From: Verrucomicrobiota bacterium
GTDB lineage: Bacteria > Verrucomicrobiota > Verrucomicrobiia > Limisphaerales > UBA11358
Length of the DNA stretch: 64,000 nucleotides
Direction: 5' to 3'
Assembly (NCBI GenBank): GCA_028872915.1
Contig: JAGWNY010000007.1
Location: 11,820-75,819 of the forward strand
Shown: positions 1,222 to 52,889 of the stretch, in pieces
How positions within the stretch are numbered: position 1 is the first letter of the stretch
Layout of the letters: every line of letters begins with the position of its first letter
Program-made: the position numbers and the translations under genes
The notes under the pieces: model-generated
Told to the model about the DNA's origin: nothing
The model's input: only the letters and a program-made list of their open reading frames with translations
Databases searched by the model: none

Positions 1222-3453
1222 CTATTCGCCAACGAGCGGATAAGGCGCCACCACGTCGGCGCCGACAGCGTAGCGCGGGTGCGCTTTGATGGAAAAGGCA
1301 AAGGCCACGGTGTAATCGGTCGGGCCGATGCCGTTATCAGTGACGCGGAAAGTCAGGGCGCCGGTCCAACTGCGCATATCACGATAAAGGGTGTAGAACT
1401 GGTCCTGCAAGCGGCCGTTTTCGGCGTTGAAATCGTGCTGGGCGCGCAGGCCCCAATTGTCGTTGAGCCGGAAAAAAAGTGTGCTGCCGATGAGATTGTC
1501 TCCGCTGTCCACGAAGCCGGCGCGCGTGTAGTCGTGGCTGAGCGCCCAACTCCAGCGGTCGTTGGGTGTAAAGGTGATCTGGTGATAGGCCAGATTCAAC
1601 TGGGCGTTGCCGATGTCGTAGCGGACCTCCGACTCCAGCGTCAGCCAGGAGCGCGGACGGAATTCAAGGTCCGAGAAGAGGTCGCTGAAGGTGCTTTGGC
1701 CGGCGGTGGGATGCAGCCGCCAGTCCATGATGAGGTCCCAATCGGCCAGATTTTCCACCTGCCCGCTGCGTTTGGTCTGAAACGTATTGCGCAGGCCGAA
1801 TCGGATGACATTTTCGCTGTCAATGGAATCAATGTCGTTGTAATCGGGCAATTGAATGGGCAAGAGGAGGGGGCTGGGCGAGGCGGGATCGAACTGCGGC
1901 AATTGCGGGGGCAGCGTGCTGGGCCGGGGAATGAACGCATAGCTGGCCGACGGCTCGATGATGTGTCGCAATCCGTCAATGTCCAGAAGCCCATTGGTTG
2001 CGCCGGTCCAAAGCCTGGATGCTTTGAAGGAGAAATCCACACCGGTATTAAAAATTTTCCGGTAGGTTTCGGCATTAGTGCCGCCGGGGCCGCTTTCATG
2101 GCCGTAATAGGTGAAGCGGCCGCCCACACGCGGGGTGACGTTCAGCCAGCCGAAAAACGTCCAAGGCAGCAGCAGTTGCTGAAACGTGTCGGCGCGGGCC
2201 GCCGCGTAGTCGGCGCCGGGGCCGTTCGTGCCGCCGAACAAGGTGTTTGTTTCCGCAAACATCCGGCGATAATAACCCGCGGAACTTTCGCTTTCATAAT
2301 ACAGCGGCGTATAGGGCACCTGCTGGCGCCAACCAGTCAGCTTCACGTCTGGCAGCCGCTCGACCTGGTCAAAGAAATCGTTGACCCGGGGCGTCGTTTC
2401 GGCGTCCACGCTCCAGTTTTGCCAATGCCGGTTAATTTCGGCGAACGTGCGCGGTTGCGGATTTTCAGTGTAAGCGCCTTCAAAAAAATCGTGGAGGAGG
2501 AGTGGATCGGACTGGTAATTAACCAGCGCCTTGACGTCGAGGTTGGTGAAGGGAGCGGCCTGCCATGCAAAGCGAAAACGCTGGCGGTCCCGGGGGATGG
2601 AAAACGTTCCGGGCACGCCGTTGGTGCCCAGGTAGGGATTTATGTCGTGCAGATGGTAATACAGAAATGAAGCCTCGCCCCAGCGATTCAGGTGCAGGTT
2701 CAGATTGGCGCCGCCCGCGCCGCCACGCCGTTCCCGATAATCGGCGCGCACGACGCCATCCACGGCATTGTTCCAATACCACCTGTAGGAGGTTAACAGA
2801 TACGGCCCGAATTTCGTCCGATAGCCGGGCAGAAAGCTGAAATGGTTCGCGCGGGCGCCGAGCGCGCGGTGATAATACGGAAAATAAAATGACGGTACGC
2901 CGTCCACGTACAAAACGGCGTTCCATGCCTCCACATATTTGCCGGGAACGATGCGGAAACGGCTCGCGCGAATCAGGATGGCGGGATCGCTCGCGTCGTC
3001 CGTGGTAATGACGACGCGGCGGGCGGAATAAGTGTTGTTCGAGAGGCTGGCGTGCAGGTCGCGGCCTTCCAGGAACAGGGGCGGCCTGCCGGCGCGGAAT
3101 TCGGCGCTGCTCATTCGGCGGGTCTTGAAATTGTAATTGATATGGTCGCCCACCCAGATCATTTGCCCCTGTGCGATGCGGACGTGGCCGTCGGCCTGAA
3201 CCTCGCCGGTTTGCAAATTGATGGTCCCGCTGTCGGCCGTCAGCACCGAATTGCTGTATTGGACATAGAAATGGGCGGCCTTGACGATGTTGCCCTGCAA
3301 CTCCGCGGCGCCGGAAGGCGCATCGGGGAGGATTTGGTTGAGGGCGCCAAACTGGATGGGCTGCTCCTGCGCGAGGGCATTTGATGAAAGAATGAGCGCC
3401 AAAAATGTCAGCGGCAGAATGGCGGGAAATCTTCTCATTAAGCGCGGCGCCAT
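1222..3453 (-). CDS. lptD: LPS-assembly outer membrane protein LptD/OstA family
   Basis: 743 aa. Signal peptide MRRFPAILPLTFLALILSSNALAQ. OstA-like N-terminal domain (LTADSGTINLQTGEVQADGHVRIAQGQMIWVGDHINYNF), then a long aromatic- and glycine-rich region typical of a beta-barrel. Alternative ATG at 3438. Confidence 0.75.
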   Translation of the reverse strand: MAPRLMRRFPAILPLTFLALILSSNALAQEQPIQFGALNQILPDAPSGAAELQGNIVKAAHFYVQYSNSVLTADSGTINLQTGEVQADGHVRIAQGQMIWVGDHINYNFKTRRMSSAEFRAGRPPLFLEGRDLHASLSNNTYSARRVVITTDDASDPAILIRASRFRIVPGKYVEAWNAVLYVDGVPSFYFPYYHRALGARANHFSFLPGYRTKFGPYLLTSYRWYWNNAVDGVVRADYRERRGGAGGANLNLHLNRWGEASFLYYHLHDINPYLGTNGVPGTFSIPRDRQRFRFAWQAAPFTNLDVKALVNYQSDPLLLHDFFEGAYTENPQPRTFAEINRHWQNWSVDAETTPRVNDFFDQVERLPDVKLTGWRQQVPYTPLYYESESSAGYYRRMFAETNTLFGGTNGPGADYAAARADTFQQLLLPWTFFGWLNVTPRVGGRFTYYGHESGPGGTNAETYRKIFNTGVDFSFKASRLWTGATNGLLDIDGLRHIIEPSASYAFIPRPSTLPPQLPQFDPASPSPLLLPIQLPDYNDIDSIDSENVIRFGLRNTFQTKRSGQVENLADWDLIMDWRLHPTAGQSTFSDLFSDLEFRPRSWLTLESEVRYDIGNAQLNLAYHQITFTPNDRWSWALSHDYTRAGFVDSGDNLIGSTLFFRLNDNWGLRAQHDFNAENGRLQDQFYTLYRDMRSWTGALTFRVTDNGIGPTDYTVAFAFSIKAHPRYAVGADVVAPYPLVGE

Positions 3454-3573
3454 TAAACAGAAGGAAAACGACCTTGTCGAGCGGCCATTCCTGCGCCCGG
3501 CCCGCCTTCGATTGCACGGAGACCCCGGCTTTATTGTAATTTCAAGCCACCAAAACTTCCGGCTGCCGCCCGG

Positions 3574-4347
3574 CTACAAGCGCACCGAAATGCTTTTTCC
3601 GGCCAGAAACCGTTTAACGTCCCCAACCGTATATTCGCCGAAATGAAAAATGCTGGCCGCGAGTACGGCATCGGCCCTGCCTTCGATCAGCACTTCGGCC
3701 AGATGTTCGAGCGTGCCTGCGCCGCCGCTGGCGACCACCGGCACGCCTACGGATTCACTGATGCGCCGGGTAATCGCCAGATCGAACCCGCCTTTCGTGC
3801 CATCGGCGTCAATGGAATTCAGAACAATTTCGCCTGCACCCAGCACCACCGCTTTTTTTGCCCACTCCACGGCATCCAGACCCGTGGGCTTGCGGCCACC
3901 GTGTGAAAACACCTGCCATTGATCGGGACCGGTTTTTTTGGCGTCAATGGAAACCACGACGCACTGGCTGCCGAATTTTTCGGCTCCGGCGCGGATTAGT
4001 TCGGGGTTGGCGAGTGCGGAGGAGTTGATGCTCACCTTGTCGGCTCCGGCGCGGAGCATGCGGAACATGTCATCCACGGATTTGATGCCGCCACCGACGG
4101 TCAGCGGCATGAAACATTCGTTTGCGGCACGTTCGATCACGTCCACCATCGTGGCGCGGCCGTGGGCGCTGGCGGTGATGTCGAAAAACACCATTTCGTC
4201 GGCACCCTGCTGGTTGTAGCGAACGGCCAGTTCGACGGGATCGCCGACATTCTTCAGTTCGCCGGCTTCGGCCCTGCCGAATTGCACGCCGCGGGTGACC
4301 TGGCCACCATGCACGTCCAGGCAGGGGATGACGCGTTTGGCAATCAT
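3574..4347 (-). CDS. hisF: Imidazole glycerol phosphate synthase cyclase subunit HisF
   Basis: [23 protein letters not shown]...TVGGGIKS...VASGGAG, a classic HisF. ATG confirmed at 4345-4347. The track ORF extends to 4377, but those 10 extra residues are not HisF-like. Confidence 0.93.
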
Positions 4348-4443
4348 GGGGGTATTGAAAACCGTGAAGGGGCGCAAGGCAAATGAATCCGCGCCGAAAA
4401 AGTTTTACTTGGCCGGGGACGAAAAATATATTGGCTGCTGGTG

Positions 4444-4530
4444 GCCGACGTGGCGGAATTGGCAGACGCGCTGGACTCAAAATCCAGTGGCCTCGCGGCC
4501 GTGTGGGTTCGACCCCCTCCGTCGGCACCA
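4444..4530 (+). tRNA. tRNA-Leu (anticodon CAA), class II with long variable arm and encoded CCA
   Basis: Acceptor stem GCCGACG pairs with CGTCGGC, followed by ACCA. Anticodon stem CTGGA/TCCAG encloses the loop CT-CAA-AA. T-arm is GGTTCGACCCC. The long variable arm fits tRNA-Leu. Confidence 0.9.
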
Positions 4531-4700
4531 AATGAAAAACAGGCGATTCATGCGCAATTCACTTGAGATGAAAAGCTTTTTCGCAGTTTTAATGCTCTCT
4601 GTCATTTGCGACCCAAAGTCTCGCCGGCCTTTCGGAACCGAATACTGCCTTGCCCCCACTCAAGCGGTTCGATGATTTGGCAGATTGAGACGCAGCGGCA

Positions 4701-5963
4701 TTAATTCAAATGGTTTGCCGCGTCGCCCACCCCCACAACAATTTCCTTGCGTGATTCCGGATTTGTGATGCGAACGTATTCGTCGCTTTCAAGACGGGCG
4801 GTGAACGATGCCTTTAATTCGCGGGCGCGTTTGTATTGTTTATCGGGCTTGGAGGGCGTCAGTGGGTAATCCACCACAAATCCGGCACATCGCAGGTCTT
4901 CGGCCAATTTCAGCGATTGGAGGCGAAGCTCTTCGTCCTGAATGACCACAAAGACGTCCACGCGGGCATCAAATGATGGCAACAGTTTGCGTGCCTTGAG
5001 CAATTCGAGCAGCACCACATCGCCCATGCCGAAGCCCAGGGCGGGAAGGTCCACCCGCCCGCCGCTGATGAGTTTGATGAGATTGTCATAACGTCCGCCG
5101 CCGGCAATGGCGCGGAACTCGCCGGTGGCGTCAAACGCCTCGAAAACCACGCCCGTGTAATAAGCCAGGCCACGGATCACGCGATAATCCACGCGCGCAA
5201 AATCCTTCATTCCGCGCGCCGCAAGGTTTCGGAGAATGGCATCGAGTTCGGGAGTGGGCGCGCCCGATGCGATGAAACGCCGCACGTCTGGAAGCGAAAA
5301 ACCCAAGGCCGACAATTTCCGCGCCGTTTCGGATTCCGGCGCCCGATCGAGTTTGTCTATGACCTGGAAGAATTCGTATTCCTCCTTGCCGCCGTTGGGG
5401 GCGGCGGGCGATTGTCCTCGCCTGCCTTTGGTGTAAAAATCCTGCCAGGCGTTGCGGCTGCTCAACCGGATAACGAAGTCCCGTTCGGTGAGGCCAAAGG
5501 CGCGCAAGGTATCAATCAAAAGGGCAATGAGTTCGGCGTCGGCGGCCGGGTCGGTTTCGCCCAAGATGTCGGCATTGAACTGGAAATGCTCGCGCAGGCG
5601 GCCTTTTTGCTGGCGTTCATATCGAAAAAGCTGGGGGATGGCGAACCATTTGACCGGCTTTTTGTAATTGCGCTCGTGGGCGGCGGCCATGCGCGCCAAT
5701 GTGGGGGTCATTTCGGGGCGCAAGGCCACGGAGCGGTTGCCCTTGTCGGTGAAATTATAGAGTTGGCCGACGATTTCATCGCCGCTCTTGGTGGTGAAAA
5801 GTTCCAGAGGTTCGAGCGGCGGCCCGTCATATTCACGAAAATGGAAACGGCGGGCCACCGACCGCCATTTTTCAAAAATGTACTGCCGGGCGTCGGCGCT
5901 CCAGACATCGGTATGGGGAAGCGGTTCGGGGTAAAAATCGCGGAATCCGGGTAATCGTTCCAT
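4701..5963 (-). CDS. hisS: Histidine--tRNA ligase
   Basis: 420 aa with GFRDFYP, ALRPEMT, FRYERQQKGRLREHFQFN, GGGRYDNL and RGLAYYTGVVFE, which are class II HisRS motifs. A HisZ paralog cannot be fully excluded. Confidence 0.88.
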   Translation of the reverse strand: MERLPGFRDFYPEPLPHTDVWSADARQYIFEKWRSVARRFHFREYDGPPLEPLELFTTKSGDEIVGQLYNFTDKGNRSVALRPEMTPTLARMAAAHERNYKKPVKWFAIPQLFRYERQQKGRLREHFQFNADILGETDPAADAELIALLIDTLRAFGLTERDFVIRLSSRNAWQDFYTKGRRGQSPAAPNGGKEEYEFFQVIDKLDRAPESETARKLSALGFSLPDVRRFIASGAPTPELDAILRNLAARGMKDFARVDYRVIRGLAYYTGVVFEAFDATGEFRAIAGGGRYDNLIKLISGGRVDLPALGFGMGDVVLLELLKARKLLPSFDARVDVFVVIQDEELRLQSLKLAEDLRCAGFVVDYPLTPSKPDKQYKRARELKASFTARLESDEYVRITNPESRKEIVVGVGDAANHLN

Positions 5964-8796: not shown

Positions 8797-8875
8797 TTAC
8801 TGGAATTTAGTCGGAGGCGCGCCGGGATAAAACGAGATTTTACGGTGAAACGGTTCCATTATTTCTTCAACCGCT

Positions 8876-10135
8876 CTAATTGCCGGCGAGAAGTTTTTGC
8901 CAGATTTCTTCGTTCAGTACGGCTCTTTTGAAGAAGCCTGTGTCGTCGGGCGGCGGGGCCGCCTTTTCGGGATGCAAGGGCATGTGAATGGTAAAGGTGT
9001 TGCCCTGGCCCGGTTCACTGTGGGCATCAATTGTGCCGCCATGATGATGCACGACAAAAAAGCAGGCCATGAGGTGAATGGCATATTCAGACGCGACGGC
9101 GCGCTGGGCGGCAAACGGGTCGAACACAGCGCGGAGGGCGTCCTGCGGAAGGCCGGGACCGTTGTCGGCTATATGAATGATCATTTCCGCCTGGCGCCCG
9201 CTGCCCTTCGACTCGGCGGAAAAGGTCAGGCGTTTTCCCGAGGGCAACGTGGCCAATTCCTCCTTGAGAAGCCATTCAAAGACGTGGAAAAACTTGTTTT
9301 TGTCCACCTGAAGCAGCGGCAGGGAATCGGGGACGTTGTTTTCAATTTCGATTTGCCGGGTGGCGATATCGGTTGCAAATTTCTCCCGCGCCTCTTCCAC
9401 CATGTCGCGCAGCGAAACCTTGTCGGCGAAGGGCGTGCGCGGATTTTCGGAGGCGGTCCATATTTCCTTCAGCAGATTGTTGATTTTTTCAATTTGTTCC
9501 TGGGCCCCCTGGTGATAGTCCGTCCAAAAGCCCGGATCGCGCAATTCGTTCTGGCTGGCGCGTTCATCGGCCATTTTGTCCGGGGCCAGTTCCAAAAATG
9601 TCTGGACGGCAACGAGCGAATTGCGGATGTGATGGCCCAAACCGGCGGCGATCAGTCCCAGGCTTACCATCCGGTCGGCAATCATCATGTTGCGAAGGAT
9701 TGACATTTTTTCATGAAGAAGCTGGTCGCGCTCCATCTGAACCATGAAAAATTCGAGGCCCTGGCGGAGGGTGAGTTCGAGCTGCGGCGGTTCCCAGGGC
9801 TTGGTGACATATTTATAGATTGCCCCGCTGTTCACGGCGGCAATGGCGGCGTCCATGTCGGCAAACGCGGTGACCAGAATCCGCAAAATGCGTGGACGAA
9901 GCTGCCGCGCCCGTTCGAGGAGCCAGACGCCCTTTTCTCCAGGCATCCGTTGGTCGGTCATCAATAATCCAATCTCATCGGCGTGTTGTTCAAGCAGGGC
10001 GTAACCTTCCTGTGCGCTGGGCGCGGTGAACAGGCGGAAGTTTCCGCCGAAGGCGCGGGAAAAATTCTTGAGCGATTTTTCCTCATCATCCACGTAGAGG
10101 ATGGCGAATTTTTTATAATCGTATTGGTTCTCCAT
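8876..10135 (-). CDS. Response regulator with an N-terminal receiver and a C-terminal histidine-kinase-like output domain (PhcR-like architecture)
   Basis: The receiver has ILYVDDEE...LLMTDQRMPG...VTAFAD...YVTKPW. It is followed by an H-box-like LGLIAAGLGHHIRNSL and a GHKL-like segment IADNGPGLP...FDPF. The G2 box looks degenerate (SEYAIHLMACFF instead of GxGLGL). The start overlaps the upstream kinase by 23 nt. Confidence 0.8.
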   Translation of the reverse strand: MENQYDYKKFAILYVDDEEKSLKNFSRAFGGNFRLFTAPSAQEGYALLEQHADEIGLLMTDQRMPGEKGVWLLERARQLRPRILRILVTAFADMDAAIAAVNSGAIYKYVTKPWEPPQLELTLRQGLEFFMVQMERDQLLHEKMSILRNMMIADRMVSLGLIAAGLGHHIRNSLVAVQTFLELAPDKMADERASQNELRDPGFWTDYHQGAQEQIEKINNLLKEIWTASENPRTPFADKVSLRDMVEEAREKFATDIATRQIEIENNVPDSLPLLQVDKNKFFHVFEWLLKEELATLPSGKRLTFSAESKGSGRQAEMIIHIADNGPGLPQDALRAVFDPFAAQRAVASEYAIHLMACFFVVHHHGGTIDAHSEPGQGNTFTIHMPLHPEKAAPPPDDTGFFKRAVLNEEIWQKLLAGN

Positions 10136-42532: not shown

Positions 42533-43825
42533 TTAATTTTTTTGAAGGCTGCGATAGATGAGGATGGCCTTGAGCAAATCGCGGGCGCGCTGGAGTTGGA
42601 TGTCGTTGATTTTCGCGACGCGGGCGCGCTCGGACGGGCTGAGGGCCTGCAGGCCGCCGGGTTCTCGCTGAAGCAGGAGGGCCCCCTCTTGTTGATCGGT
42701 CACGGGCACCACAATGTCCGGCTCAATGCCGCGCTCCTCGATCACGCGGTGGCTGGGAGTGTAGTATTTGGCTGTGGTCAGCTTGAGAGCCGAGCCGTCG
42801 CGAAGCGGGAAAAGGCTTTGGACAAGGCCCTTGCCAAAGGTTCTCTGGCCCACAATGACGGCACGATGAAGGTCGTGCAGGCAGCCAGTCACTATTTCCG
42901 AAGCGCTCGCGCTGCCCAGATTGACGAGCACCACAATGGGTTCGCCATGCAATTCGTCCCCGTCGCCGGCGGCGCGCCGGATGGAATCCTGGGAGGGATC
43001 GCGGCCTTCGGTGGTAACGATGAGCTGGCCGCGGGGCAGAAATTTCTGGCAGACGCTGACGGCCTCATCGAGCAGGCCGCCGGGATTCCACCGCAAATCC
43101 AGGATCAACGCTTTCATGCCCTGCGCCTTCAACTTGTCGAGCGCTTCCTGGAGTTCCCGCCCCGTCTTGTCGCCAAATTCGTTGATGCGAATATAACCGA
43201 TTTTATCGGGACCGAGCGGAAAGTCACTGCCGCCGGCGATGTCCTTGACCATTTCCATGTGAATGATGGCGCGTTTGAGAACAATGGTTTTTTCGGTCCC
43301 GGTTTCAGGCCGCTGGATGGTGACGGCGACGTCCGTTCCGGGTACGCCGCGCAACTGGTCCACCACGTCGCCCAGCGGCAAACGCCCAATGTTTCTGCCA
43401 TTGACCTTTACGATGCGGTCCCCGGTCAAAATGCCGGCGCGGAATCCGGGGGAATCGTCCATCGGGGCGACTACCGTCACGTAACCCTCTTTCATGGACA
43501 CGACGAGGCCCAGACCGCCGAAGCGGCCTTCGGTGTCCGATTCAAAACGCTGGTAATCCCGGGGAGTCAGAAATTCGCTGTGGGGATCGAGTTGCGCCAC
43601 CATGCCCTTGATGGCCGAATAAACGAGTTCGTGATAGGTCAGATTGGTGGAGTCGGCGTATTCGGTCCGGATTTTTTGCATGACGTTGACCAGGAGATCG
43701 AGGTTTGCCCTTTCCGAATCGGCGGCGTCTTCGGCGTGTGGCGAGAGAAAAAATATGCCCGCGCCGATGGCAAGATTCAACGCGAGCAGCACAATCACCG
43801 AACCGAAGACCAAACGTCGTTTCAT
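42533..43825 (-). CDS. Carboxy-terminal processing peptidase (S41 family, PDZ domain)
   Basis: N-terminal TM anchor. PDZ region FGGLGLVV...GILTGDRIVKVNG. S41 core ALILDLRWNPGGLL, VLVNLGSASASE and TFGKGLVQ. Confidence 0.9.
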   Translation of the reverse strand: MKRRLVFGSVIVLLALNLAIGAGIFFLSPHAEDAADSERANLDLLVNVMQKIRTEYADSTNLTYHELVYSAIKGMVAQLDPHSEFLTPRDYQRFESDTEGRFGGLGLVVSMKEGYVTVVAPMDDSPGFRAGILTGDRIVKVNGRNIGRLPLGDVVDQLRGVPGTDVAVTIQRPETGTEKTIVLKRAIIHMEMVKDIAGGSDFPLGPDKIGYIRINEFGDKTGRELQEALDKLKAQGMKALILDLRWNPGGLLDEAVSVCQKFLPRGQLIVTTEGRDPSQDSIRRAAGDGDELHGEPIVVLVNLGSASASEIVTGCLHDLHRAVIVGQRTFGKGLVQSLFPLRDGSALKLTTAKYYTPSHRVIEERGIEPDIVVPVTDQQEGALLLQREPGGLQALSPSERARVAKINDIQLQRARDLLKAILIYRSLQKN

Positions 43826-44048
43826 TTCGATGCCGTTTTATCACAAAAGCGCGGGGAGCCGAAGATGAATTTTTGACGAGGCGAACGCTGGGATGTTTCC
43901 AGCCCGCCGGTTCTTCGGAAATCCCGCCCGCCGCAGAGCATGTCCGGCCCCGCAACCCGCTCCAATCGCTGCCTTATGGGGCTTGATTCGAAATTGAACC
44001 TTAACATTGAAGTTGAACGCATCAGGGCCACCCGGGTATCCTCGTACC

Positions 44049-45158
44049 GTGATACGACGATTTTACGTTCATAACTTTCGATGCCTGGAAAATTTCGAGC
44101 TGCCGGTCGCCGATCGGCCGTCCGTCCTGTTGATCGGAAAAAATGGCGCGGGCAAGACAACCATTGGATTTGCGCTCGAAATTCTCCAGCGAATCGCTCG
44201 TGGAACCAATCGAGTGAATGACGTTGTGACCCCCAAGGATTTCGCTTGGGGGCGCACTGAGGCACCCATGAGATTTGAAATTGAAATCAAATTGGATGCC
44301 GTCATTTACAAATATTTCATCGCCTTCGAATTTCCGCCGGGATTCAAGGAACTGCGAGTGCGGGAAGAAGGTCTGGCTGTGGACGGCAAGCCGGTCTTCA
44401 CGCGAGAGTTCGCGCAAGTGCATCTCGCAAAGGCGGGGACGGAGAAGGAGGCAAAATTCCTGATTGATTGGCATCTGGCCGCTTTGCCAATCGTTCAGGA
44501 GCAGACGGAGAAAGACCCCTTGTTCATTTTCAAGAAGTGGCTGGCGCGTCTGGTCATTCTTCGTCCGATACCAGGTTTGATTAAAGGAACGTCCGAACAG
44601 GAAACATTGCAGCCAAACATTCAGGGCACGGATTTCGGCGCGTGGTTTTCCGGATTGGTTAAATCCGCACCCGCGGCGTACGGAGAAATCGACCGTTATC
44701 TCAAGCAGGTCATGCCGGATCTCAAAGACATCAAAAATCCCGTGATTGGGAAAGACGCCCGCAGCCTGGAGGTGCAGTTCTCGAATGATCTCGGCAACAT
44801 TACGGTTCCGTTCGCCGACCTTTCGGACGGTGAAAAGTGTTTTATGATCTGTGCGATGGTGTTGGCGGCGGATGCCGCTTATGGACCGCTGGTGTGCTTT
44901 TGGGACGAACCGGACAATTACCTGGCATTGTCGGAGGTCGGCCATTTCGTCATGGCTTTGCGCAAAGCATTTCAAAACCGGGGCCAGTTTATCGCCACGT
45001 CGCACAATCCCGAAGCGATCCGGCGTTTTTCCGAAGAAAACACCCTGGCGCTTTTCAGGAAAAGTCACCTGGAACCGACAAATGTCCGGCCCTTAAGCGA
45101 GATCAAAGTGAACGGCGATCTTGTGAGTGCGTTAATTCGCGGGGACGTCGAATCATGA
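44049..45158 (+). CDS. ABC/SMC-like ATPase of the AAA_15/AAA_21 type (OLD/AriA/PtuA-like ATPase, no fused nuclease)
   Basis: N-terminus (V)IRRFYVHNFRCLENFEL, Walker A GKNGAGKTT, signature-like LSDGEK, Walker B VCFWDEPDNYL and H-loop ATSHNPE. No ATG is available. GTG at 44049 gives the family-typical N-terminus; in-frame TTG alternatives are at 44007 and 44013. Confidence 0.8.
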   Translation: MIRRFYVHNFRCLENFELPVADRPSVLLIGKNGAGKTTIGFALEILQRIARGTNRVNDVVTPKDFAWGRTEAPMRFEIEIKLDAVIYKYFIAFEFPPGFKELRVREEGLAVDGKPVFTREFAQVHLAKAGTEKEAKFLIDWHLAALPIVQEQTEKDPLFIFKKWLARLVILRPIPGLIKGTSEQETLQPNIQGTDFGAWFSGLVKSAPAAYGEIDRYLKQVMPDLKDIKNPVIGKDARSLEVQFSNDLGNITVPFADLSDGEKCFMICAMVLAADAAYGPLVCFWDEPDNYLALSEVGHFVMALRKAFQNRGQFIATSHNPEAIRRFSEENTLALFRKSHLEPTNVRPLSEIKVNGDLVSALIRGDVES

Positions 45159-45631
45159 ATAAAATGGTTCCGCATGTCCTCGTGCTGCCGGAGGATGATG
45201 CAAATCGCCAATTAGCCAACGGTTTCCAACTTGATTATTCGCTGGACACACGGCGGATTCAAATTCTTGAGGCGGCTGGAGGGTGGCGCCAAGTTTTAGA
45301 ACGATTGAAAGAAGTTCACGTTGCGGAAATGGAACGCAATCCAAATCGTTTCATGGTTCTGCTGGTTGATTTTGACAGGCAGAAGAATCGCTTTCGCGAA
45401 ATTGCGGCTGAAATTCCGACCCATTTGAGCGAAAGAGTTTTTGTGCTGGGAACCTGGAGCCAGCCGGAGGAACTGCGGCAAGCCCTTGGTTCATACGAAA
45501 AAATCGGATTAGCGATGGCTAAAGATTGCCGGGAAAACACGGATGCGATATGGAAGCACACTCTTCTCACACACAACGCCGAAGAACTGGATCGTTTAAG
45601 GCAGCGAATCCGTCCAATTTTATTCCCCTGA
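45155..45631 (+). CDS. 158-aa protein of unknown function with a Toprim-like acidic motif pattern, translationally coupled to the upstream ATPase
   Basis: The ATG at 45155 overlaps the ATPase TGA (ATGA). A beta-strand-like HVLVLPEDD (E13) and a later hydrophobic strand ending in MVLLVDFDR (D72-x-D74) mimic the Toprim E...DxD arrangement. I recognise no other family. Confidence 0.6.
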   Translation: MNKMVPHVLVLPEDDANRQLANGFQLDYSLDTRRIQILEAAGGWRQVLERLKEVHVAEMERNPNRFMVLLVDFDRQKNRFREIAAEIPTHLSERVFVLGTWSQPEELRQALGSYEKIGLAMAKDCRENTDAIWKHTLLTHNAEELDRLRQRIRPILFP

Positions 45632-45643
45632 TTAAAGGGAGAG

Positions 45644-46330
45644 TCAGAATCGGCGCTTGAGCAGCGATTCGATCCACGGAACATCGCCGGGCACGGTGAC
45701 CTTGGGGTTGGGCGCGTTGGCGGCAACCAGGCGGACGGGCTGGCCGATCAATTCGCACGCGGCTGTGTCGTCCGTGAGGACAAGATTTTTGGCCCGGGCG
45801 GCGGCGACCGCGCGCCGGATGACCTCCACGCGGAACGTCTGGGGGGTTTGCACCGACCAGATGCGCGAGCGGTCGAGCGTGCGCAGAACGACGCGGCCAT
45901 CCGCCGTTTCCTTGATGGTATCCGTCACGGGCTGCGCGGCCACGGCGGCTCCGGTTTCGCGCGCCGCGGCAATGGTGGCGGCAATCAGCGCTTCGGCAAC
46001 GCAGGGACGGGCCGCGTCGTGAATGGCCACGATTTCGGCTTTGGGGGAAAGAGCCGCCAGCCCGTTCCAGACAGAGTCCTGCCGCGCCACGCCGCCGGCG
46101 ACAATGTGAAAGGGTTTTTGAAAGCCAAATCGCGCGGCGAGATTCGAAAATTCGGGCTGCCGCCCTTCGGCGACGACAAGAATTATTTCGCGGATGCAGT
46201 CCGCCTGTTCAAAGCGATGCCAGGCATGGGCGATAACGGGGCGGCCGGCGACGTGCAGGAAGAGCTTGTCCACGCCCGGCCCCATGCGAAGGCCCTTGCC
46301 CGCGGCAACAATGACGGCGGAATTGAACAT
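45644..46330 (-). CDS. ispD: 2-C-methyl-D-erythritol 4-phosphate cytidylyltransferase
   Basis: AVIVAAGKGLRMG...DKLFL, VAIHDAARP and RIWSVQTPQTF. Confidence 0.92.
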   Translation of the reverse strand: MFNSAVIVAAGKGLRMGPGVDKLFLHVAGRPVIAHAWHRFEQADCIREIILVVAEGRQPEFSNLAARFGFQKPFHIVAGGVARQDSVWNGLAALSPKAEIVAIHDAARPCVAEALIAATIAAARETGAAVAAQPVTDTIKETADGRVVLRTLDRSRIWSVQTPQTFRVEVIRRAVAAARAKNLVLTDDTAACELIGQPVRLVAANAPNPKVTVPGDVPWIESLLKRRF

Positions 46331-46431: not shown

Positions 46432-49400
46432 ATGCCGCATGCGGATTTTGTTCATTTGCATTTGCACACCGAGTATTCGTTGCTCGATGGCGCCTGCCGC
46501 ATGGACCGGCTCATGGAAAAGGCCCATGAATTGAAATTTCCGGCGCTGGCCATCACCGACCATGGCGTTCTTTACGGCGCAATAGATTTTTACAAGGAGG
46601 CGCTGGCCAAGGGGATCAAGCCAATCATCGGCTGCGAGGTGTATGTGGCGCCCGGCTCGCGCCTGGAAAAGAAGACCGGCAATGCCGGTGGCGGGCGGGA
46701 CGTCTATCATCATCTTGTGCTGCTCGCCAAAAATGCGACCGGCTATCATAACCTGATCCGCCTCGTCACGGACGCGCATTTGCAAGGCTACTATTACAAG
46801 CCGCGCATAGACAAGGAACTGCTGGCGGCGCACAAGGATGGCCTGATCGCGTTGTCAGGCTGCCTGGCCAGCGAAATTCCCGATTTAATCGTCCACGATC
46901 AGGCGCTCCGGGCGCGGAGCGTTCTGGATTGGTTCCAGCAAACGCTTGGGCCGGACAATTTCTACCTGGAACTGCAAAACCACGGCATTCCCGAACAGGC
47001 AAAGGTGAATCGCCAATTGATCCAGTGGGCGCGGGAAACGGGGCTGAAGCTGGTGGCCACGAATGACGTTCATTACATCGAAAAAAACCATTCCCACGCC
47101 CATGATTGTTTGATTTGCATCGGCACGCAGTCGCAATTGGCGGAATCAAAACGGATGCGCTACGAGCCGGAACAGTTTTATCTGCGCTCGCCCGAGGAAA
47201 TGAAGGCGCGTTTTGCGGAAACGCCGGAGGCGTTGAAAACGACGCTGGAAATTGCGGAAAAATGCAATCTCCAAATCGAATTTGGAAAGTTGCACTTTCC
47301 GGTGTTCGATCCGCCGGAACATTTCACGCGGGAGGGTTACCTGCGCAAGCTGCTGGCCGAGGGATTGGCCAAGCGCTATGGAATTCAGGCCCGAATCGCT
47401 GACGGGAAATTTGTGGCGGAGAAGATTGACGAGGCGAAGCTGGCGGCGGCATTCGGCACGGCAGGCGGTCACGACGACAAAGGCGGGGCAGAAGACGTAA
47501 AGAACGGCAAGAAACGGGAAAAATCGGCGGACATTCAAACCGCCTGCGCAACGGTCCTGGACCGGCTGGAATTGGAATTGAAGGTCATCGAAAAGACAGG
47601 GTTCCTAAGCTATTTCCTTATCGTGGGCGATTTTGTGCGCTACGGGCGCGAGCACGGCATTTCGTGCGTGGCGCGCGGCAGCGCCGCCGGCTCCCTGGTG
47701 ACCTATTTGCTCGAAATTGCGAACGTGGACCCCATACGGCACGGCCTGCTCTTCGAACGATTTCTTAACCCCGAACGGGTCAATCCACCGGACATTGACA
47801 TTGATTTCGCCGATGACCGGCGGGCGGACGTCATCGAATACGTGCGGAATAAATACGGGCGCGACGCCGTGGCGCAAATCGTGACGTTCGGCACAATGGG
47901 CGCCAAGAGCGTGGTCCGGGACGTGGCGCGGGTGATGGGCCTGAGTTACGGGGACGGCGACCGCCTGGCGAAAATGATTCCGTTCGACTTGAAAATGACG
48001 CTGGAGAAGGCGTTGCGCCAGTCGCCCGAACTCAAGGAGGCGTATGAGAACGAGGACGTGACGCGGGAGCTGATTGACACGGCGCTGATTCTGGAGGACA
48101 TCACGCGCAACGCAAGCGTACACGCGGCGGGTGTCGTCATTGGCGACCAACCGCTCGTCAACCTGCTGCCGCTCAAGCAGGATGAAGACGGCGCGCTCGT
48201 CACGCAATACGCCATGAACCCGGTGGGCGACCTGGGCTTGTTGAAGATGGATTTTCTGGGATTAAAGACGCTGACGGTCATCCGCAACACCTGCGAGATG
48301 GTCCTGCGCACGCAAAGCCTGGAAATTGATATTGATCATCCGCCGCTGGACGACAAAAAGACCTATGAGTTGCTGAATCGGGCGGAAACGCTGGGCGTGT
48401 TTCAGTTGGAATCGGGGGGGATGCGGGATTTGTGCCGAAAATTCCAGATTGGCTCCATCGAGCACATCACGGCGCTGGTGGCCCTTTACCGGCCCGGCCC
48501 GATGGACCTGATCCCCGAATTTATCCGGCGGCGGCACGGGGAAATCGCCATCGAATACGAGCATCCCTTGCTGGCGCCGATTGCGCGCGAAACCTACGGC
48601 ATTTTGATTTACCAGGAGCAGGTGATGCAGGCGGCGCAGATTCTGGCGGGTTTCACGCTTGGTGCGGCGGACATTTTGCGGCGGGCCATGGGCAAGAAGA
48701 AGGTGGAGGAGATGCGGAAGCAGCGGGAAAAATTCGTGAAAGGTTGCGCGGAAAAAAACAAAATCCCCGCCGCCAAGGCGAACCAGATTTTCGATTTGCT
48801 CGAAAAATTCGCCGGATATGGGTTCAACAAATCGCACGCGGCGGCCTACGCCATTGTGGCGTATCAAACGGCGTATCTGAAGGCGAACTTTCCGGTGGAA
48901 TTTTTCTGCGCGATGATGACCAACGACATGGCCGACACGGCGAAGTTGAGCCAATACGTGCAGGAGGCGCGCGAATTTGGAATCGAGGTATTGCAGCCGG
49001 ACGTGAATGAAAGCGGCGTTTATTTTGAGCCGGCGTCGGCCCGGGGCCAAAACGGCGGGCAGGCGCGCCGGAACATCCGCTTCGGCCTTGCGGCGATCAA
49101 GAACGTGGGCGAGATCGCCGTCCAAAGCATCCTGTCGGCGCGGGAGGCGGCCGGCCGGTTCGAATCGCTGGACGATTTGTGCGAACGGGTTGAAAGCCGC
49201 GTAGTCAATAGAAAGGTGTTGGAAGCGCTGATCAAGTGTGGCGCGTGCGATTGTTTCAAACAGGCGCGGGCCGCCATGTTTGCGCACATTGAGCGGGCCT
49301 TGGCGCGCGGCGCGGCCGTCCAATCCGACCGGCAAAAAGGCCAAAGTTCGCTTTTTGGAACGCTGGAGGAAAGGCCCGCGCTACGGGAGACTGAAGGCGC

Positions 49401-50118
49401 CACGCCGGAATGGGCGCAACACGAGTTGCTGGCCCATGAAAAGGAATTGCTCGGTTTTTACGTGACCGGCCATCCGCTGACGCCGCTGGCGCCCATTTTA
49501 AAAAAATATGCGCTCGCGACCACCAGCCAGCTTGCGGGATTGCCCAATCGCAGCCTCACTCGCATCGGAGGGTTGATTACCGCCGTTCAAAACGGCGTCT
49601 CCAAAAAATCGGGAAAACCGTATTCCATGGTCACGCTCGAAGACCTGGAAGGCTCGGTGCAGCTCCTGTGCATGAACGAGAATTACGAGAAATACCGCGG
49701 ACTGTTGCAACCGAACAAGGCGGTGCTGGTGATAGGGGAAGTGAACACGGGCGATGAGCGGCCGAAAATTTTTCCGCAGGAAATCCTGCCTCTGGACGAA
49801 GCGCCGCGCAGATTCACCCGGCAGGTGCATTTGCGCTTGCACGCCGCGCACGTGGAACCTGGCCAGTTGGAGTCCGTGCGGGAACTGGTGGCGGCCCATC
49901 CGGGGAAGTGCCCGTTGTTTCTCTGCTTCATGCAGCCGGGCGGCGAAGTGGTTTTTGTGGAGACCAACGACGGTTTCGGCGTTGCGCCGTCGCTGGAATT
50001 GCAGCGCGAAGCCAATGCCCGGTTCGGCGAGGAAACCTATTATGCAAAAGTGGACACGACGTTGCCCGAACGCGCCCCGCGCCGATGGGAGCGCAAGAAC
50101 GGCAACGGGGAGGAATAA
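46432..50118 (+). CDS. dnaE: DNA polymerase III alpha subunit
   Basis: 1228 aa. PHP domain FVHLHLHTEYSLLDG...ITDHG. Polymerase core FLIVGDFV, PDIDIDF, GVFQLES, YRPGPM and FNKSHAAAYA. An OB-fold tail follows. Confidence 0.97.
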   Translation: MPHADFVHLHLHTEYSLLDGACRMDRLMEKAHELKFPALAITDHGVLYGAIDFYKEALAKGIKPIIGCEVYVAPGSRLEKKTGNAGGGRDVYHHLVLLAKNATGYHNLIRLVTDAHLQGYYYKPRIDKELLAAHKDGLIALSGCLASEIPDLIVHDQALRARSVLDWFQQTLGPDNFYLELQNHGIPEQAKVNRQLIQWARETGLKLVATNDVHYIEKNHSHAHDCLICIGTQSQLAESKRMRYEPEQFYLRSPEEMKARFAETPEALKTTLEIAEKCNLQIEFGKLHFPVFDPPEHFTREGYLRKLLAEGLAKRYGIQARIADGKFVAEKIDEAKLAAAFGTAGGHDDKGGAEDVKNGKKREKSADIQTACATVLDRLELELKVIEKTGFLSYFLIVGDFVRYGREHGISCVARGSAAGSLVTYLLEIANVDPIRHGLLFERFLNPERVNPPDIDIDFADDRRADVIEYVRNKYGRDAVAQIVTFGTMGAKSVVRDVARVMGLSYGDGDRLAKMIPFDLKMTLEKALRQSPELKEAYENEDVTRELIDTALILEDITRNASVHAAGVVIGDQPLVNLLPLKQDEDGALVTQYAMNPVGDLGLLKMDFLGLKTLTVIRNTCEMVLRTQSLEIDIDHPPLDDKKTYELLNRAETLGVFQLESGGMRDLCRKFQIGSIEHITALVALYRPGPMDLIPEFIRRRHGEIAIEYEHPLLAPIARETYGILIYQEQVMQAAQILAGFTLGAADILRRAMGKKKVEEMRKQREKFVKGCAEKNKIPAAKANQIFDLLEKFAGYGFNKSHAAAYAIVAYQTAYLKANFPVEFFCAMMTNDMADTAKLSQYVQEAREFGIEVLQPDVNESGVYFEPASARGQNGGQARRNIRFGLAAIKNVGEIAVQSILSAREAAGRFESLDDLCERVESRVVNRKVLEALIKCGACDCFKQARAAMFAHIERALARGAAVQSDRQKGQSSLFGTLEERPALRETEGATPEWAQHELLAHEKELLGFYVTGHPLTPLAPILKKYALATTSQLAGLPNRSLTRIGGLITAVQNGVSKKSGKPYSMVTLEDLEGSVQLLCMNENYEKYRGLLQPNKAVLVIGEVNTGDERPKIFPQEILPLDEAPRRFTRQVHLRLHAAHVEPGQLESVRELVAAHPGKCPLFLCFMQPGGEVVFVETNDGFGVAPSLELQREANARFGEETYYAKVDTTLPERAPRRWERKNGNGEE

Positions 50119-50136: not shown

Positions 50137-52722
50137 TCAGGGCGATTGGACGCGGTAGAATTGCCGGGACTGGCTTGCCGGGGTCGTGAAACGATACGAA
50201 CTGTCGGGAACATTGGTGGTGAACGTCGCGCTCATGTTGGTGCTCCAGGGCGCGGTCAAGTGCGCGGTTTGAAGGAGATGAAAGACGCTGGCCGGGCCGG
50301 TAACGCTGAAGTTTAATTCCACCTGATTGTTCGTCAGGATGGGCTGATTCATTGTGATCAACGGCGTGGTATTGGAGACGACAGTCACCTCTTTCGCCGG
50401 CCCGTATGGCAGCGGGAACTGCCCATAAATCACCGGCTGCGCTTGAAGGAGCCACGTTCCGGACTGGCCGGGCGTGAATGTGAAATTAGTGGTGTCAATG
50501 GTTGAGATGACTTGCTGCTGCACGTTGGTCAACACGATGTCTTCGATGTTCCAGCCGATAAAATTGTCGCTTTGCGCATAAAAGCTGCCGCCCTGAAAAT
50601 CATAATTAAAGCGCAATAAGGTAATCTTCCCGGAATAATTGGCCAGCGACAACGTATGCGGCGTAAAGCTGGATTCGGCCGTGCCGCCAGGTTCGGCAAA
50701 CAAATCGTCCCACGTCGCGCCATTGTTCGTGGACGCCTGCACGCGGGCCACTTCGTTGCTGGTGGCGTCGCCCAACTGGCTTGAAAAGCCCAGGCTGGAA
50801 GCGGCCGACGGCAGCAGCGTTTCGTTGAATTGCATCCATTGTGGCGCGGGGTCCAAATGTGTCAGGTGGAAACAGTGCGGCTCCGCGCCAACGGGAGGAT
50901 TGGTGATGGCGTAGTAATACGGCAGCGGCGTGATGGTAAAATTGGCCAGCCCATTGTTCGCGGAGTCGGCAAGGTTGCCGGAGACGATATTGGTAACGGT
51001 GGAATTGTTGGTCGCCTGATTCACGAGGGTTTGGACGTTGGTGATCAAAATGTCCGTGAAATACCAGCCAAGGGGGGAACCGCTGTTGTAGTAACTCCCG
51101 CTTTGAAAATCGTAATTAAAACGCAGCGAAATCGTCTTGCCAGCGTAATTGGCCAGCGACAACGAATGCGGCGTAAAGCTGGTTTCATAGGAGCCGTTGC
51201 CCGCCTGGGTATAAAGATCGCTCCAGTTCACGCCGCCATCGGCGGAGACCTGCACGCGAGCCACTTCATCCGATGTGGCAAAGCCCAATTCGCTCTCGAA
51301 ATCCAGCTCGGTATTCGTCGCGGCGAGCAGGGTGCGGTCCAGTTGGAGCAATTGCGGCGCGGCATTGGTCTGGTAATGCTCCAGGTTGAAACAGGTTCCG
51401 GAACCGAATGGCTCGGTCGTTGTAATGGAATAATTTGGCTGCGGCGAAATGGTAAAATTCACCAGGCCCATGCCGGCGTCGTCAAACACGTTGCCCGAAA
51501 CGAGTTGTGCAATTTGAAAGTTATAGCTGGTCACGTGCGGGTCGTTCGGCGGCGTCGCGTAATAAATCGTTCCGGCGTTGGCGACGGCCTGCGTGGGTCC
51601 GTTCAGAATGGGGGCGATGTAATCCGCGCCTGGCACGGCGGGATCGAATGAAGTCACGTTATACGAATAACTGACGATGGCGCCGTTATTGGTGATGTTG
51701 CCCACGGTGACGTTGTAAACGGTGTCCGTGCCGTCGAATGGGAACGTCGTGGCCTCCGTCGTGGCGTCCAATCCCATTGGAACCCACACGATGGTGTTTT
51801 CGCCGTAACCGGTTTTGTAAGGCTGGATGGCAACGCTGACCGGCACGCCATTGCTGGTCATGCTGACGGTGGCGCCCGAGAAATCCGCGTTGCTCAGGCC
51901 AAAGGACCAATAGGGAAAGACCACCTGATAGGGAACAAAACCTTCCGGCGGCCAGGAGACGTATGGCTGGCGCGTGGCCGGGCGCGCGCCAAAGCTGGCC
52001 GGATCAAAAACGTACGTCAGATTCGCCGCCTCGTTCGTGCCCGCTCCGGGCACGTCGCCCACGCCCATGACGGTTTCCGGGGGATACAAAATCCAGCGGC
52101 GATGCCCCACTTCACTGTTGTTTCCGCCGAAGTCCCAGATGAAAAACATGGTTGCTTCCGCGCCATCCGCGCCAATCGCCTGGTCGCCCCCGGCGTAACC
52201 CGCGGCGAAGGTGTTGTAGCAGGTGTAAGTGGACGGCGGATTATGATTGAGCGTGTTGTTCGCCGAAATGATCACCGCCATTTGCTGCGAACCCCAATCA
52301 TCAATCGGGTCCAATTGAATGTTTGCCGGCATTCCGGCCAGCGCGCGGAACCAGTTGATGCGCAGCAATTCGGCCTGTACGAAGGCCGGTGCGTTGTGGC
52401 CCGGCGTGCAACTGGACACGTCGGCCGTCGTGCCCTGGGCCACGTTGTCCGAAACCGGATAAATGGCATTGTAAAAATCCCGCGTCTGCTCCCGCGAATC
52501 CGTATTGACGGAAAAACCGCCCGTCACCGGCGCAAGCAACGTCTTCGCCCCTTTTGCAGGCGACGGATTCAAGGGAAGATTGGGCGGCGCCGGCGCTGCC
52601 TGTCCCAAATTCGGAACCGGCGGGGAATAATGGCTGAGGGTCTGCGAAAAAACAGTCACGGGAAGCGCCAACAGGACCAAACTGGCGTGAATCGTCAAGC
52701 GGATAAATTTGTGGCACCGCAT
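50137..52722 (-). CDS. Large secreted protein: CAP/SCP (PR-1-like) domain, two tandem ~170-aa beta-rich repeats and a C-terminal domain ending in QFYRVQSP
   Basis: Signal peptide MRCHKFIRLTIHASLVLLALPVTVFSQ (ATG at 52720-52722; the track start at 52752 is TTG). CAP-like segment ELLRINWFRALAGMP...NHNPP...GHRRWILYP. The repeats are described in the next feature. Confidence 0.75.
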   Translation of the reverse strand: MRCHKFIRLTIHASLVLLALPVTVFSQTLSHYSPPVPNLGQAAPAPPNLPLNPSPAKGAKTLLAPVTGGFSVNTDSREQTRDFYNAIYPVSDNVAQGTTADVSSCTPGHNAPAFVQAELLRINWFRALAGMPANIQLDPIDDWGSQQMAVIISANNTLNHNPPSTYTCYNTFAAGYAGGDQAIGADGAEATMFFIWDFGGNNSEVGHRRWILYPPETVMGVGDVPGAGTNEAANLTYVFDPASFGARPATRQPYVSWPPEGFVPYQVVFPYWSFGLSNADFSGATVSMTSNGVPVSVAIQPYKTGYGENTIVWVPMGLDATTEATTFPFDGTDTVYNVTVGNITNNGAIVSYSYNVTSFDPAVPGADYIAPILNGPTQAVANAGTIYYATPPNDPHVTSYNFQIAQLVSGNVFDDAGMGLVNFTISPQPNYSITTTEPFGSGTCFNLEHYQTNAAPQLLQLDRTLLAATNTELDFESELGFATSDEVARVQVSADGGVNWSDLYTQAGNGSYETSFTPHSLSLANYAGKTISLRFNYDFQSGSYYNSGSPLGWYFTDILITNVQTLVNQATNNSTVTNIVSGNLADSANNGLANFTITPLPYYYAITNPPVGAEPHCFHLTHLDPAPQWMQFNETLLPSAASSLGFSSQLGDATSNEVARVQASTNNGATWDDLFAEPGGTAESSFTPHTLSLANYSGKITLLRFNYDFQGGSFYAQSDNFIGWNIEDIVLTNVQQQVISTIDTTNFTFTPGQSGTWLLQAQPVIYGQFPLPYGPAKEVTVVSNTTPLITMNQPILTNNQVELNFSVTGPASVFHLLQTAHLTAPWSTNMSATFTTNVPDSSYRFTTPASQSRQFYRVQSP
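50518..51501 (-). repeat. Intragenic tandem duplication (2 x ~470-510 nt) inside the CAP-domain protein gene
   Basis: Protein repeats at aa ~418-574 and ~590-745 of the 871-aa track ORF share long identical strings (EVARVQ, SFTPH.LSLANY.GK, LRFNYDFQ.GS.Y, TNVQ). At DNA level, GGCCAGCGACAACGTATGCGGCGTAAAGCTGG (50641) recurs as GGCCAGCGACAACGAATGCGGCGTAAAGCTGG (51151), an offset of 510 nt. Confidence 0.75.
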
Positions 52723-52889
52723 CGGGGGCAAATTGTTCAACTGACCGGCCAAGGGTAGGCGAGGCCGTCGGCGCGTCCAAGCCCGAAATACTGGTTTTGC
52801 CCGGCTCGCAAACCGCTCCGCTTATCCTGCCGCCCAAACCCGGTGAGAAAAAACTCGCGTTTTGACGGCGCGGCGGCAAAATCGGCGCG

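Follow-up and report, generated by a model that had tools for sequence, protein, structure and literature searches.

We describe here a compact two-gene cassette in a 64,000-nucleotide stretch of contig JAGWNY010000007.1 from a Verrucomicrobiota bacterium (assembly GCA_028872915.1, positions 11,820 to 75,819); this whole stretch is referred to as the window, and coordinates are counted from its first letter. The cassette lies in an inserted segment of 1,818 nt (43826..45643) between the start of ctpA, which encodes an S41 protease (42533-43825, reverse strand), and the stop of ispD (45644-46330, reverse strand). Two open reading frames (ORFs), placed in different frames of the forward strand, make it up and fall within 44007-45631. 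The first (44049..45158) encodes a 369-residue ATP-binding cassette (ABC) ATPase of the AAA_21/AAA_15/SMC_N type with a GTG start codon, and the second (45155..45631) encodes a 158-residue protein that belongs to no named family and is putatively a metal-dependent effector of Toprim-like type. The stop codon of the first gene and the start codon of the second share the four nucleotides ATGA (45155-45158). The pair is probably a mobile module of an ATPase and a Toprim-like enzyme; to the fuller reading, that it is a mobile ABC-ATPase/Toprim-type conflict module with an immune or abortive role, we assign a probability of about 0.5.

The ATPase carries the complete set of nucleotide-binding motifs on the forward strand, comprising a Walker A motif (GKNGAGKT, 44136-44159), an ABC signature (LSDGEK, 44820-44837), a Walker B motif with the catalytic glutamate (VCFWDEPD, 44892-44915) and an H-loop (TSHN, 44997-45008). 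None of these four motifs varies among 39 aligned homologs, and the enzyme keeps all residues needed for ATP binding, head-to-head dimerisation and hydrolysis, so that it is predicted to be competent. A reading made from the letters of the window without database searches (hereafter the sequence-only reading) had listed these four motifs, the N-terminus of the ATPase, the ATGA overlap, and two acidic motifs in the small protein, HVLVLPEDD and the DxD-containing MVLLVDFDR. All of them were recovered and are well beyond what chance would give; the acidic residues are strongly conserved in the family, as described below. The same reading had placed the start of the ATPase at 44007, which is 42 nt too far upstream. 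The most likely start is the GTG at 44049, giving a protein with the N-terminus IRRFYVHNFRCLENF, and the in-frame TTG at 44007 is improbable, because most ATPase homologs are exactly 369 residues long and because an initiation codon is conserved at the later position. Alignments of the ATPase in related loci begin at residues 11-15 of the 383-residue product that would start at the TTG, and the codon aligned with residue 15 is GTG or ATG in 66 of 71 loci (GTG in 58, ATG in 8).

Profile searches place the ATPase firmly within its clade and outside its named branches. In Pfam it matches AAA_21 (E = 3e-17, 64 bits against a cut-off of 27), AAA_15 (7e-13, 49.4 bits against 32.1) and SMC_N, and its N-terminus matches the RecF and SMC_N models. 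Its PADLOC matches are AbiLi (1e-20), AriA (8e-18), mad3 (3e-16), HEC-01A (9e-16) and PtuA (3e-13); since AriA scores similarly to the others, the likeness is generic, and the NCBIfam MAD3 model reaches only 37 bits against a cut-off of 420. The AlphaFold2 model (mean predicted local distance difference test score, pLDDT, 78; predicted template-modelling score, pTM, 0.81) contains one short helical insert. In Foldseek, PtuA proteins from Septu and retron systems were its best matches (about 1e-11 to 1e-10), followed by Rad50 and SMC heads and by Thermus OLD (6p74, 2e-9), all with template-modelling (TM) scores of about 0.5. The protein is thus a compact, stand-alone ABC ATPase of the AAA_15/21 clade, as first proposed from its motifs, and it lies outside every named subfamily.

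The two genes behave as one unit in inheritance and loss. An ATPase homolog, 58-80% identical to that of the window, lies directly upstream of the small gene in 82 of 83 fetched loci, which answers a check that the sequence-only reading had suggested, namely whether homologs of the small protein co-occur with ATPases. The four-nucleotide overlap, as ATGA or GTGA, is kept in 72 of 79 related loci and points to coupled translation of the pair. When each protein is compared with its window counterpart, the two sets of identities co-vary (r = 0.65). Clustering of 699 neighbouring ORFs revealed no third conserved gene, the most recurrent neighbour being present in only 5 of 81 loci. The sole locus in which the two genes are separated (L043, 9714-10001) has about 287 nt between them and no overlap; this may represent an insertion or a rearranged junction. 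In four further loci (L033, L037, L039 and L069, each at about 8850-9990), the coding sequence of the ATPase runs over two frames, which could reflect either real frameshifts, and hence pseudogenes, or homopolymer errors of long-read sequencing.

The small protein belongs to a large family. At least 1,466 relatives are present in a database clustered at 90% identity, all of them unnamed and without a Pfam domain, and in an exhaustive library the family forms 863 clusters at 50% identity, nearly all of about 160 residues. No fusion to an ATPase was found among the best 150 representatives, the longest of which has 282 residues where about 530 would be expected of a fusion. Within the 1.3 Mb of fetched loci, no distant paralogs of the small protein were found.

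A few loci record the decay of the pair. On the conjugative plasmid CP070234.1 of Dolichospermum sp. DET69 (L084, 8001-9310), an intact ATPase with 55% identity remains and the small gene is gone, only a 51-residue annotated ORF following the ATPase. In L010 (9682-10465), the ATPase has suffered an internal deletion of about 280 residues, so that residues 2-34 are joined to 314-382 in different frames, and the small gene is full-length. In L059 (10001-10384), the small gene has lost its first 29 codons at the 5' end, and the ATPase is missing. Decay can thus start with either partner, and these few, contradictory cases give no clear asymmetry of the toxin/antitoxin kind. The surroundings of the Dolichospermum copy include VapC toxin-antitoxin genes, group II intron reverse transcriptases, an HNH endonuclease and another AAA ATPase.

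These decayed copies bear on the possibility that the cassette is a selfish addiction element with no part in defence, in which a toxic small enzyme is neutralised by the ATPase and the whole persists since its loss is costly. In its favour, the two coupled genes form a compact, self-promoted cassette that stands alone among housekeeping genes without defence neighbours and is patchily distributed by horizontal transfer. The Dolichospermum plasmid, which has kept the ATPase and lost the small gene, would also fit, and PARIS itself behaves as a type II toxin-antitoxin pair (PMC13064643). However, a strict toxin/antitoxin pair would not tolerate the intact small gene beside the deleted ATPase of L010, and toxin-antitoxin behaviour and defence are not mutually exclusive. 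We regard pure addiction as an unlikely explanation.

The cassette is horizontally mobile and self-contained, as its variable flanks, its deviating composition, the empty sites in related genomes and its scattered lineages show. In the window, the GC content is 0.49-0.54 exactly over the pair and 0.57-0.66 on both sides, and the GC content at third codon positions (GC3) is 0.61 for the pair against 0.72-0.77 in the neighbouring genes. The insertion site was compared with 80 metagenomic loci carrying an ispD gene 65-76% identical to that of the window; neither the ATPase nor the small gene was found at ispD in any of the 80. All 54 loci that carry both flanking genes have ispD followed by ctpA on the same strand, with a gap of 18-378 nt (median about 72 nt). 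Given these 54 direct junctions and the 1,818 nt that separate the same genes in the window, the pair has been inserted into a conserved junction. Elsewhere, the genes flanking the pair vary from genome to genome. Within 5 kb on either side of the cassette no integrase or transposase was found, and searches for terminal repeats or insertion scars around it returned only short repeats at chance level.

In a scan of one genome per species, relatives were detected in 282 of about 185,000 species. They come from Verrucomicrobiota, many Acidobacteriota, Planctomycetota, Cyanobacteria, Myxococcales, Methylococcales, Syntrophobacter and Binataceae, and the pair is scattered over at least seven bacterial lineages, with identities across phyla of 50-88% for both proteins. 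Two copies reside on large cyanobacterial plasmids, one of them the copy without its small gene.

Such well-conserved proteins could instead serve an accessory function in nucleic-acid maintenance, either as a RecF/RecR-like pair of an SMC-type ATPase and a non-cleaving Toprim protein or in RNase M5-like RNA processing with an ATPase partner. Toprim proteins include RecR and RNase M5 (PMC10568477, PMC12065111), the ATPase resembles RecF and SMC_N at its N-terminus and Rad50 and SMC heads in its fold, the identity of both proteins across phyla is high, and the neighbours are housekeeping genes. Against this, only the 282 species genomes mentioned above were matched, and close relatives of the window genome do not have the pair at the same site, which marks it as dispensable and horizontally acquired. 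Clustering of the neighbours also revealed no linkage to repair or ribosome genes, and the GC content of the pair deviates from that of its host. A maintenance role is accordingly the least likely of the explanations considered here.

The cassette appears to bring its own promoter. Across loci with unrelated flanks, conservation upstream of the ATPase begins only about 45 nt before the start codon, and a promoter-like element (44013..44042, forward strand) is the sole non-coding DNA conserved between loci whose flanking genes differ. In the window it consists of a -35 hexamer TTGAAC (44013-44018), an 18-nt spacer and a -10 hexamer TATCCT (44037-44042), followed after 6 nt by the GTG. In an anchored profile of 71 loci, the corresponding hexamer reads TATCAT, each of its positions being conserved at about 70-77%, and conservation of the -35 hexamer is seen chiefly in Verrucomicrobia-type loci. 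A promoter function is suggested by this cross-locus alignment. A generic promoter and terminator scanner found nothing above background in the window, and it missed the element because the window copy agrees with the consensus at just 8 of 12 positions. The 6 nt that separate the -10 hexamer from the start codon are too few to hold a Shine-Dalgarno sequence; we infer that the ATPase is translated from a leaderless mRNA and the second gene by coupling. Downstream of the stop codon of the small gene, no DNA is conserved across the aligned loci, and in the window the ispD stop codon lies 12 nt beyond it.

The small protein, for which the sequence-only reading had recognised no named family, had no match as a single sequence or through profiles in Pfam, PADLOC, NCBIfam, PHROGs or PDB sequences. 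Its AlphaFold2 model (pLDDT 87, pTM 0.83) shows a four-strand α/β core (residues ~7-112) followed by a helical tail (114-156). The predicted elements of the core are β1 (8-12), α1 (15-25), β2 (35-37), α2 (44-61), β3 (66-72), α3 (78-86), β4 (95-100) and α4 (104-111), after which come two more helices. Only G43, D72 and D74 are invariant in 107 diverse representatives; each of E13, D14, H7, W44, R79, R94, G99, P104, E105 and several C-terminal residues recurs in 90% or more of them, and the family motifs are PEDDAN, AGGW, EPE and HN..EL. The conserved residues sit at the C-terminal ends of all four predicted strands, and strands 1, 3 and 4 are the acidic ones. On the forward strand of the window, these acidic positions correspond to E13/D14/D15 of HVLVLPEDD after strand 1 (45191-45199, with the E13 codon at 45191-45193), D72/D74 of MVLLVDFDR after strand 3 (45368-45376) and P104-E105 after strand 4 (45464-45469). 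The C-terminal ends of the strands are the usual place of the active site in Rossmann-like folds.

This arrangement resembles that of Toprim domains, whose hallmarks are a glutamate after β1 and a DxD motif after β3 (PMC12065111; PMC10568477). Both are found in the predicted structure of the small protein, on a core with the order β1-α1-β2-α2-β3-α3-β4. Sequence comparisons at the limit of detection point in the same direction. When the 107 representatives were scanned singly, Pfam returned DUF4276 for two of them (best 5.5e-4) and Toprim_2 for one (0.024), and PADLOC returned several HEC-01B models (best 2.5e-4), mad4 for one representative (1.7e-3) and RT-Toprim (0.053), together with a few unrelated matches at a similar level. 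The HEC-01B matches are co-linear with their profiles, residues 35-104 aligning with profile positions 34-102, residues 8-98 with 3-85 and residues 61-109 with 62-113. A hidden Markov model (HMM) built from 53 DUF4276 proteins recovered family members among 138 targets at E = 2.7e-5 (P0133, the best) and 4.4e-4, and P0133 remained in register from β3 and the DxD motif through β4 and the acidic motif that follows it; the best E-value of the reverse search was 0.031. A subclade profile reached a probability of 59% against DUF4276, which is not counted as proof because the subclade had been chosen by its DUF4276 score and is thus selection-biased.

The closest sequence relatives of the small protein therefore appear, at the detection limit, to be the DUF4276/HEC-01B/Mad4 proteins, which are paired with AAA_21 ATPases in the same gene order. 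Membership in DUF4276 (PF14103), and thus in HEC-01B/Mad4, was considered and rejected: the window protein is not matched, and the motifs VEGxGE after strand 1 and REYEAW after strand 4, invariant in the 53 DUF4276 proteins, are replaced by PEDDAN and (E)PE. The N-terminal ~110 residues are probably a very divergent Toprim/DUF4276-like core, to which a different and shorter C-terminal part is attached.

Pairs of a separate ABC ATPase and a small Toprim protein have already been described in PARIS, AbiL, Mad3-Mad4 and HEC-01 (PMC11464382; bioRxiv 10.1101/2024.01.29.577857). Defence activity has been demonstrated for PARIS and AbiL (PMC11464382; PMC13064643), and together with Mad3-Mad4 and OLD these systems provide precedents for an ATPase/Toprim conflict module (PMC11464382, PMC13064643, PMC10568477). 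The pair described here is a member of none of the PARIS, AbiL, Mad3-Mad4 and HEC-01 families; it is shorter than all of them and is missed by current models.

HEC-01 is the nearest in layout. Like the window pair, it is a two-gene operon in which the ATPase precedes a small Toprim-type protein; the window ATPase aligns over its full length to HEC-01A models at about 1e-15, and several members of the small family match HEC-01B weakly. According to its preprint (bioRxiv 10.1101/2024.01.29.577857), HEC-01 often lies outside defence islands, as does the window-type pair. A distant homolog of the ATPase was present on a high-GC contig labelled as phage (L085, MT835995.1, 'Bacteriophage sp.', from human faeces, 2977-4730), where a 392-residue AAA_21 ATPase is overlapped at its end by GTGA, the same four-nucleotide overlap, with a 192-residue ORF. 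This ORF matches DUF4276 at 1e-16 and HEC-01B over its full length at 2e-55, so that PADLOC HEC-01B and Pfam DUF4276 are the same family, and the locus shows that AAA_21 and DUF4276 pairs can be phage-borne. In contrast to HEC-01, the window partner has about 160 rather than about 190-210 residues and no VEGxGE or REYEAW motif, and the pair is not embedded in Hma or other systems; HEC-01 itself is of no demonstrated function.

PARIS also combines a split AAA_15/21 ATPase with a Toprim-type effector in the same gene order. However, AriB is a protein of about 35 kDa with a DUF4435 dimerisation module, whereas the window partner has 18 kDa, and no match to DUF4435 (PF14491) or AriB was found in the window protein or the 107 representatives. 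AriA (about 53-55 kDa) carries the coiled-coil inserts IS1 and IS2, whereas the window ATPase (369 residues, 41 kDa) has a short helical insert. PARIS occupies phage and satellite hotspots, whereas a search of 2.9 million viral contigs, limited to two peptide patterns, turned up no relative of the window-type pair.

AbiL shares the two-gene architecture, AbiLi is the best PADLOC match of the window ATPase, and an RloB-like protein is among the weak fold matches of the small protein. Yet the AbiLi match covers only part of the profile, no member of the small family matches an AbiLii or RloB profile, and AbiL is found on lactococcal plasmids, whereas the window-type pair is found in Gram-negative phyla of soil and freshwater. 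The Mad3-Mad4 pair consists of an AAA_15/21 ATPase and, as Mad4, a DUF4276 Toprim homolog (PMC12065111, PMC11464382), and the mad3 match of the window ATPase and the single mad4 match in the small family follow this pattern. Mad3 and Mad4 are accessory parts of the eight-gene, methylation-associated MADS (bioRxiv 10.1101/2023.03.30.534895; PMC12065111), whereas the window-type pair stands alone, with no methyltransferase conserved nearby; the pair was rejected as a part of MADS because no other mad genes are conserved in its vicinity. OLD proteins of classes 1-3 (P2 Old, GajA and the retron-associated class) likewise join an ABC ATPase to a Toprim-type acidic site, and the ATPase matches the fold of OLD 6p74 significantly. 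In OLD, however, the domains are fused and the Toprim part matches Toprim_OLD profiles, whereas the window genes are separate and give no such match.

PARIS provides a template for how the pair might work, since its ATPase holds the effector sequestered until a trigger frees it, whereupon the Toprim protein cuts tRNA (PMC11464382, PMC13064643). In the model that we propose, the ATPase and the small protein would form a complex after coupled translation from the leaderless mRNA. The ATPase would act as sensor and regulator, keeping the small protein inactive until a trigger, perhaps a protein of a phage or plasmid or else an aberrant nucleic acid, alters its nucleotide or oligomer state. E13/D14 and D72/D74 would then bind Mg2+ or Mn2+ and cleave nucleic acid, either DNA or a conserved RNA such as tRNA (cf. 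AriB), and this cleavage would arrest the growth of the invaded cell or destroy the invader. Overall, the system would work broadly like PARIS, AbiL or OLD, and a defence role of the pair is plausible.

Several results weigh against this reading. On the side of the small protein, nothing in PDB or BFVD matched its model in Foldseek at E ≤ 1e-3; among the weak matches (E 0.008-0.3), the DnaG Toprim domain, topoisomerases and the RloB-like protein stand amid generic flavodoxin-like folds, which score as well as the Toprim folds. No defence or Toprim model of Pfam or PADLOC matched the window protein itself, even at E ≤ 1 for DUF4276, HEC-01B and mad4. An hhalign comparison in local mode of the small family with 53 genuine DUF4276 proteins gave a probability of 1.5%, with an alignment confined to the β3 strand and the DxD motif, and global and low maximum-accuracy (MAC) modes added nothing. 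On the side of function, HEC-01, a PADLOC candidate that combines an ATPase with DUF4276, gave no protection in E. coli (bioRxiv 10.1101/2024.01.29.577857). The intact small gene beside the gutted ATPase of L010 speaks against the model in its simple form, in which the ATPase would be an indispensable antitoxin. The 298 proteins encoded within two genes on either side of the pair in about 80 loci carry no defence-island signal, with only a handful of PADLOC matches at E ≤ 1e-10, and the two-pattern search of viral contigs noted above yielded no relative.

The structural comparisons in particular raise the alternative that the small protein is neither a Toprim domain nor a nuclease, being instead a Rossmann- or flavodoxin-like metal- or phosphate-binding domain (receiver-, HAD- or phosphatase-like) or an adaptor, and that the output of the system lies elsewhere, for example in the ATPase itself or in a small-molecule reaction. 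The best Foldseek matches, lumazine synthase, PTS EIIA and integrin I, are non-significant and would suit such a protein, a receiver domain is among the weak ones, and the hhalign alignment covers only a strand and its DxD segment. Acids after strands 1 and 3 also define the sites of receiver and HAD-type domains. Nevertheless, the weak matches of the family converge on the Toprim partners of ABC ATPases (HEC-01B, mad4, DUF4276, Toprim_2 and RT-Toprim) and are co-linear, the gene order and overlap are those of genuine ATPase and DUF4276 pairs, and the model has four strands where receiver domains have five. This alternative, with its output elsewhere, is quite unlikely, and a Toprim-like enzyme remains our preferred reading of the small protein.

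With this evidence, the larger claims of the sequence-only reading can be refined. It had seen a Toprim metal-binding arrangement in the small protein; the order of the elements and the conserved acids (D72 and D74 invariant, E13 and D14 at 90% or more) agree with it, whereas the Foldseek threshold of E ≤ 1e-3 was not reached and hhalign stayed at 1.5%. The description of the pair as a split, minimised ATPase and Toprim system holds for the strict coupling and the short partner, but the design was already known and the Toprim identity is not statistically established. Likewise, the suggestion of an uncharacterised system holds in so far as the pair falls outside all named families compared, and is qualified by the earlier descriptions of ATPase and small Toprim pairs; a role of the pair in defence is plausible. 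Enrichment in defence islands, which had been named as a check, was not observed: the 298 neighbours are essentially housekeeping proteins.

The neighbours of the pair encode ordinary metabolic and envelope functions, and their Pfam tally includes MurJ, TPR, short-chain dehydrogenases, P450 and radical SAM proteins. Those with PADLOC matches look like singleton generic Ser/Thr kinases and SNF2 helicases. In the window, the neighbouring genes are purF, a gene for a peptide-binding protein, fabI, an ABC transporter ATPase gene, the S41 protease gene, ispD and dnaE. The dnaE gene (46432-50118) adjoins ispD divergently and had no match in the 80 ispD loci, for which 6 kb were fetched on that side, so that synteny beyond ispD also differs from that of relatives. 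Beyond it, an 871-residue ORF (50137-52752, reverse strand) begins with a hydrophobic segment and is probably secreted; its two long internal repeats (FTPHSLSLANYAGKTISLRFNYDFQSGSYY and FTPHTLSLANYSGKITLLRFNYDFQGGSFY) suggest a duplicated domain.

ABC-ATPase/Toprim pairs are a recurring design in prokaryotic immunity, seen in OLD, Gabija, PARIS, AbiL, MADS and HEC-01, and the function and target of its simplest members, an ATPase with a small stand-alone Toprim protein, are still undemonstrated. The family described here would be the most minimal version yet, with 369 and 158 residues and no accessory domains. It is abundant in the poorly studied Acidobacteriota, Verrucomicrobiota and Planctomycetota, and PADLOC, Pfam and NCBIfam models miss the small protein and the pair. 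A broader proposition, which we put forward tentatively and at less than even odds, is that the small protein founds a widespread, so far unnamed family, with at least 863 clusters at 50% identity, whose members are minimal Toprim-like effectors. Together with their dedicated 369-residue ATPase, they would form a distinct fifth lineage of split OLD-like systems. This lineage would be a leaderless cassette of about 1.6 kb that inserts itself between housekeeping genes of soil and freshwater bacteria, with a target or trigger that sets it apart from PARIS, AbiL and Gabija; current defence-finding tools do not see it.

The design itself will not surprise a specialist, but the family is large, uncharacterised, minimal and easily tested. 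If the pair proves inactive in defence, it would caution against calling every ATPase and Toprim pair an immune system. If it is active, it would provide a small and tractable model of an ABC ATPase gating a Toprim nuclease and would extend the annotation of defence in soil metagenomes.

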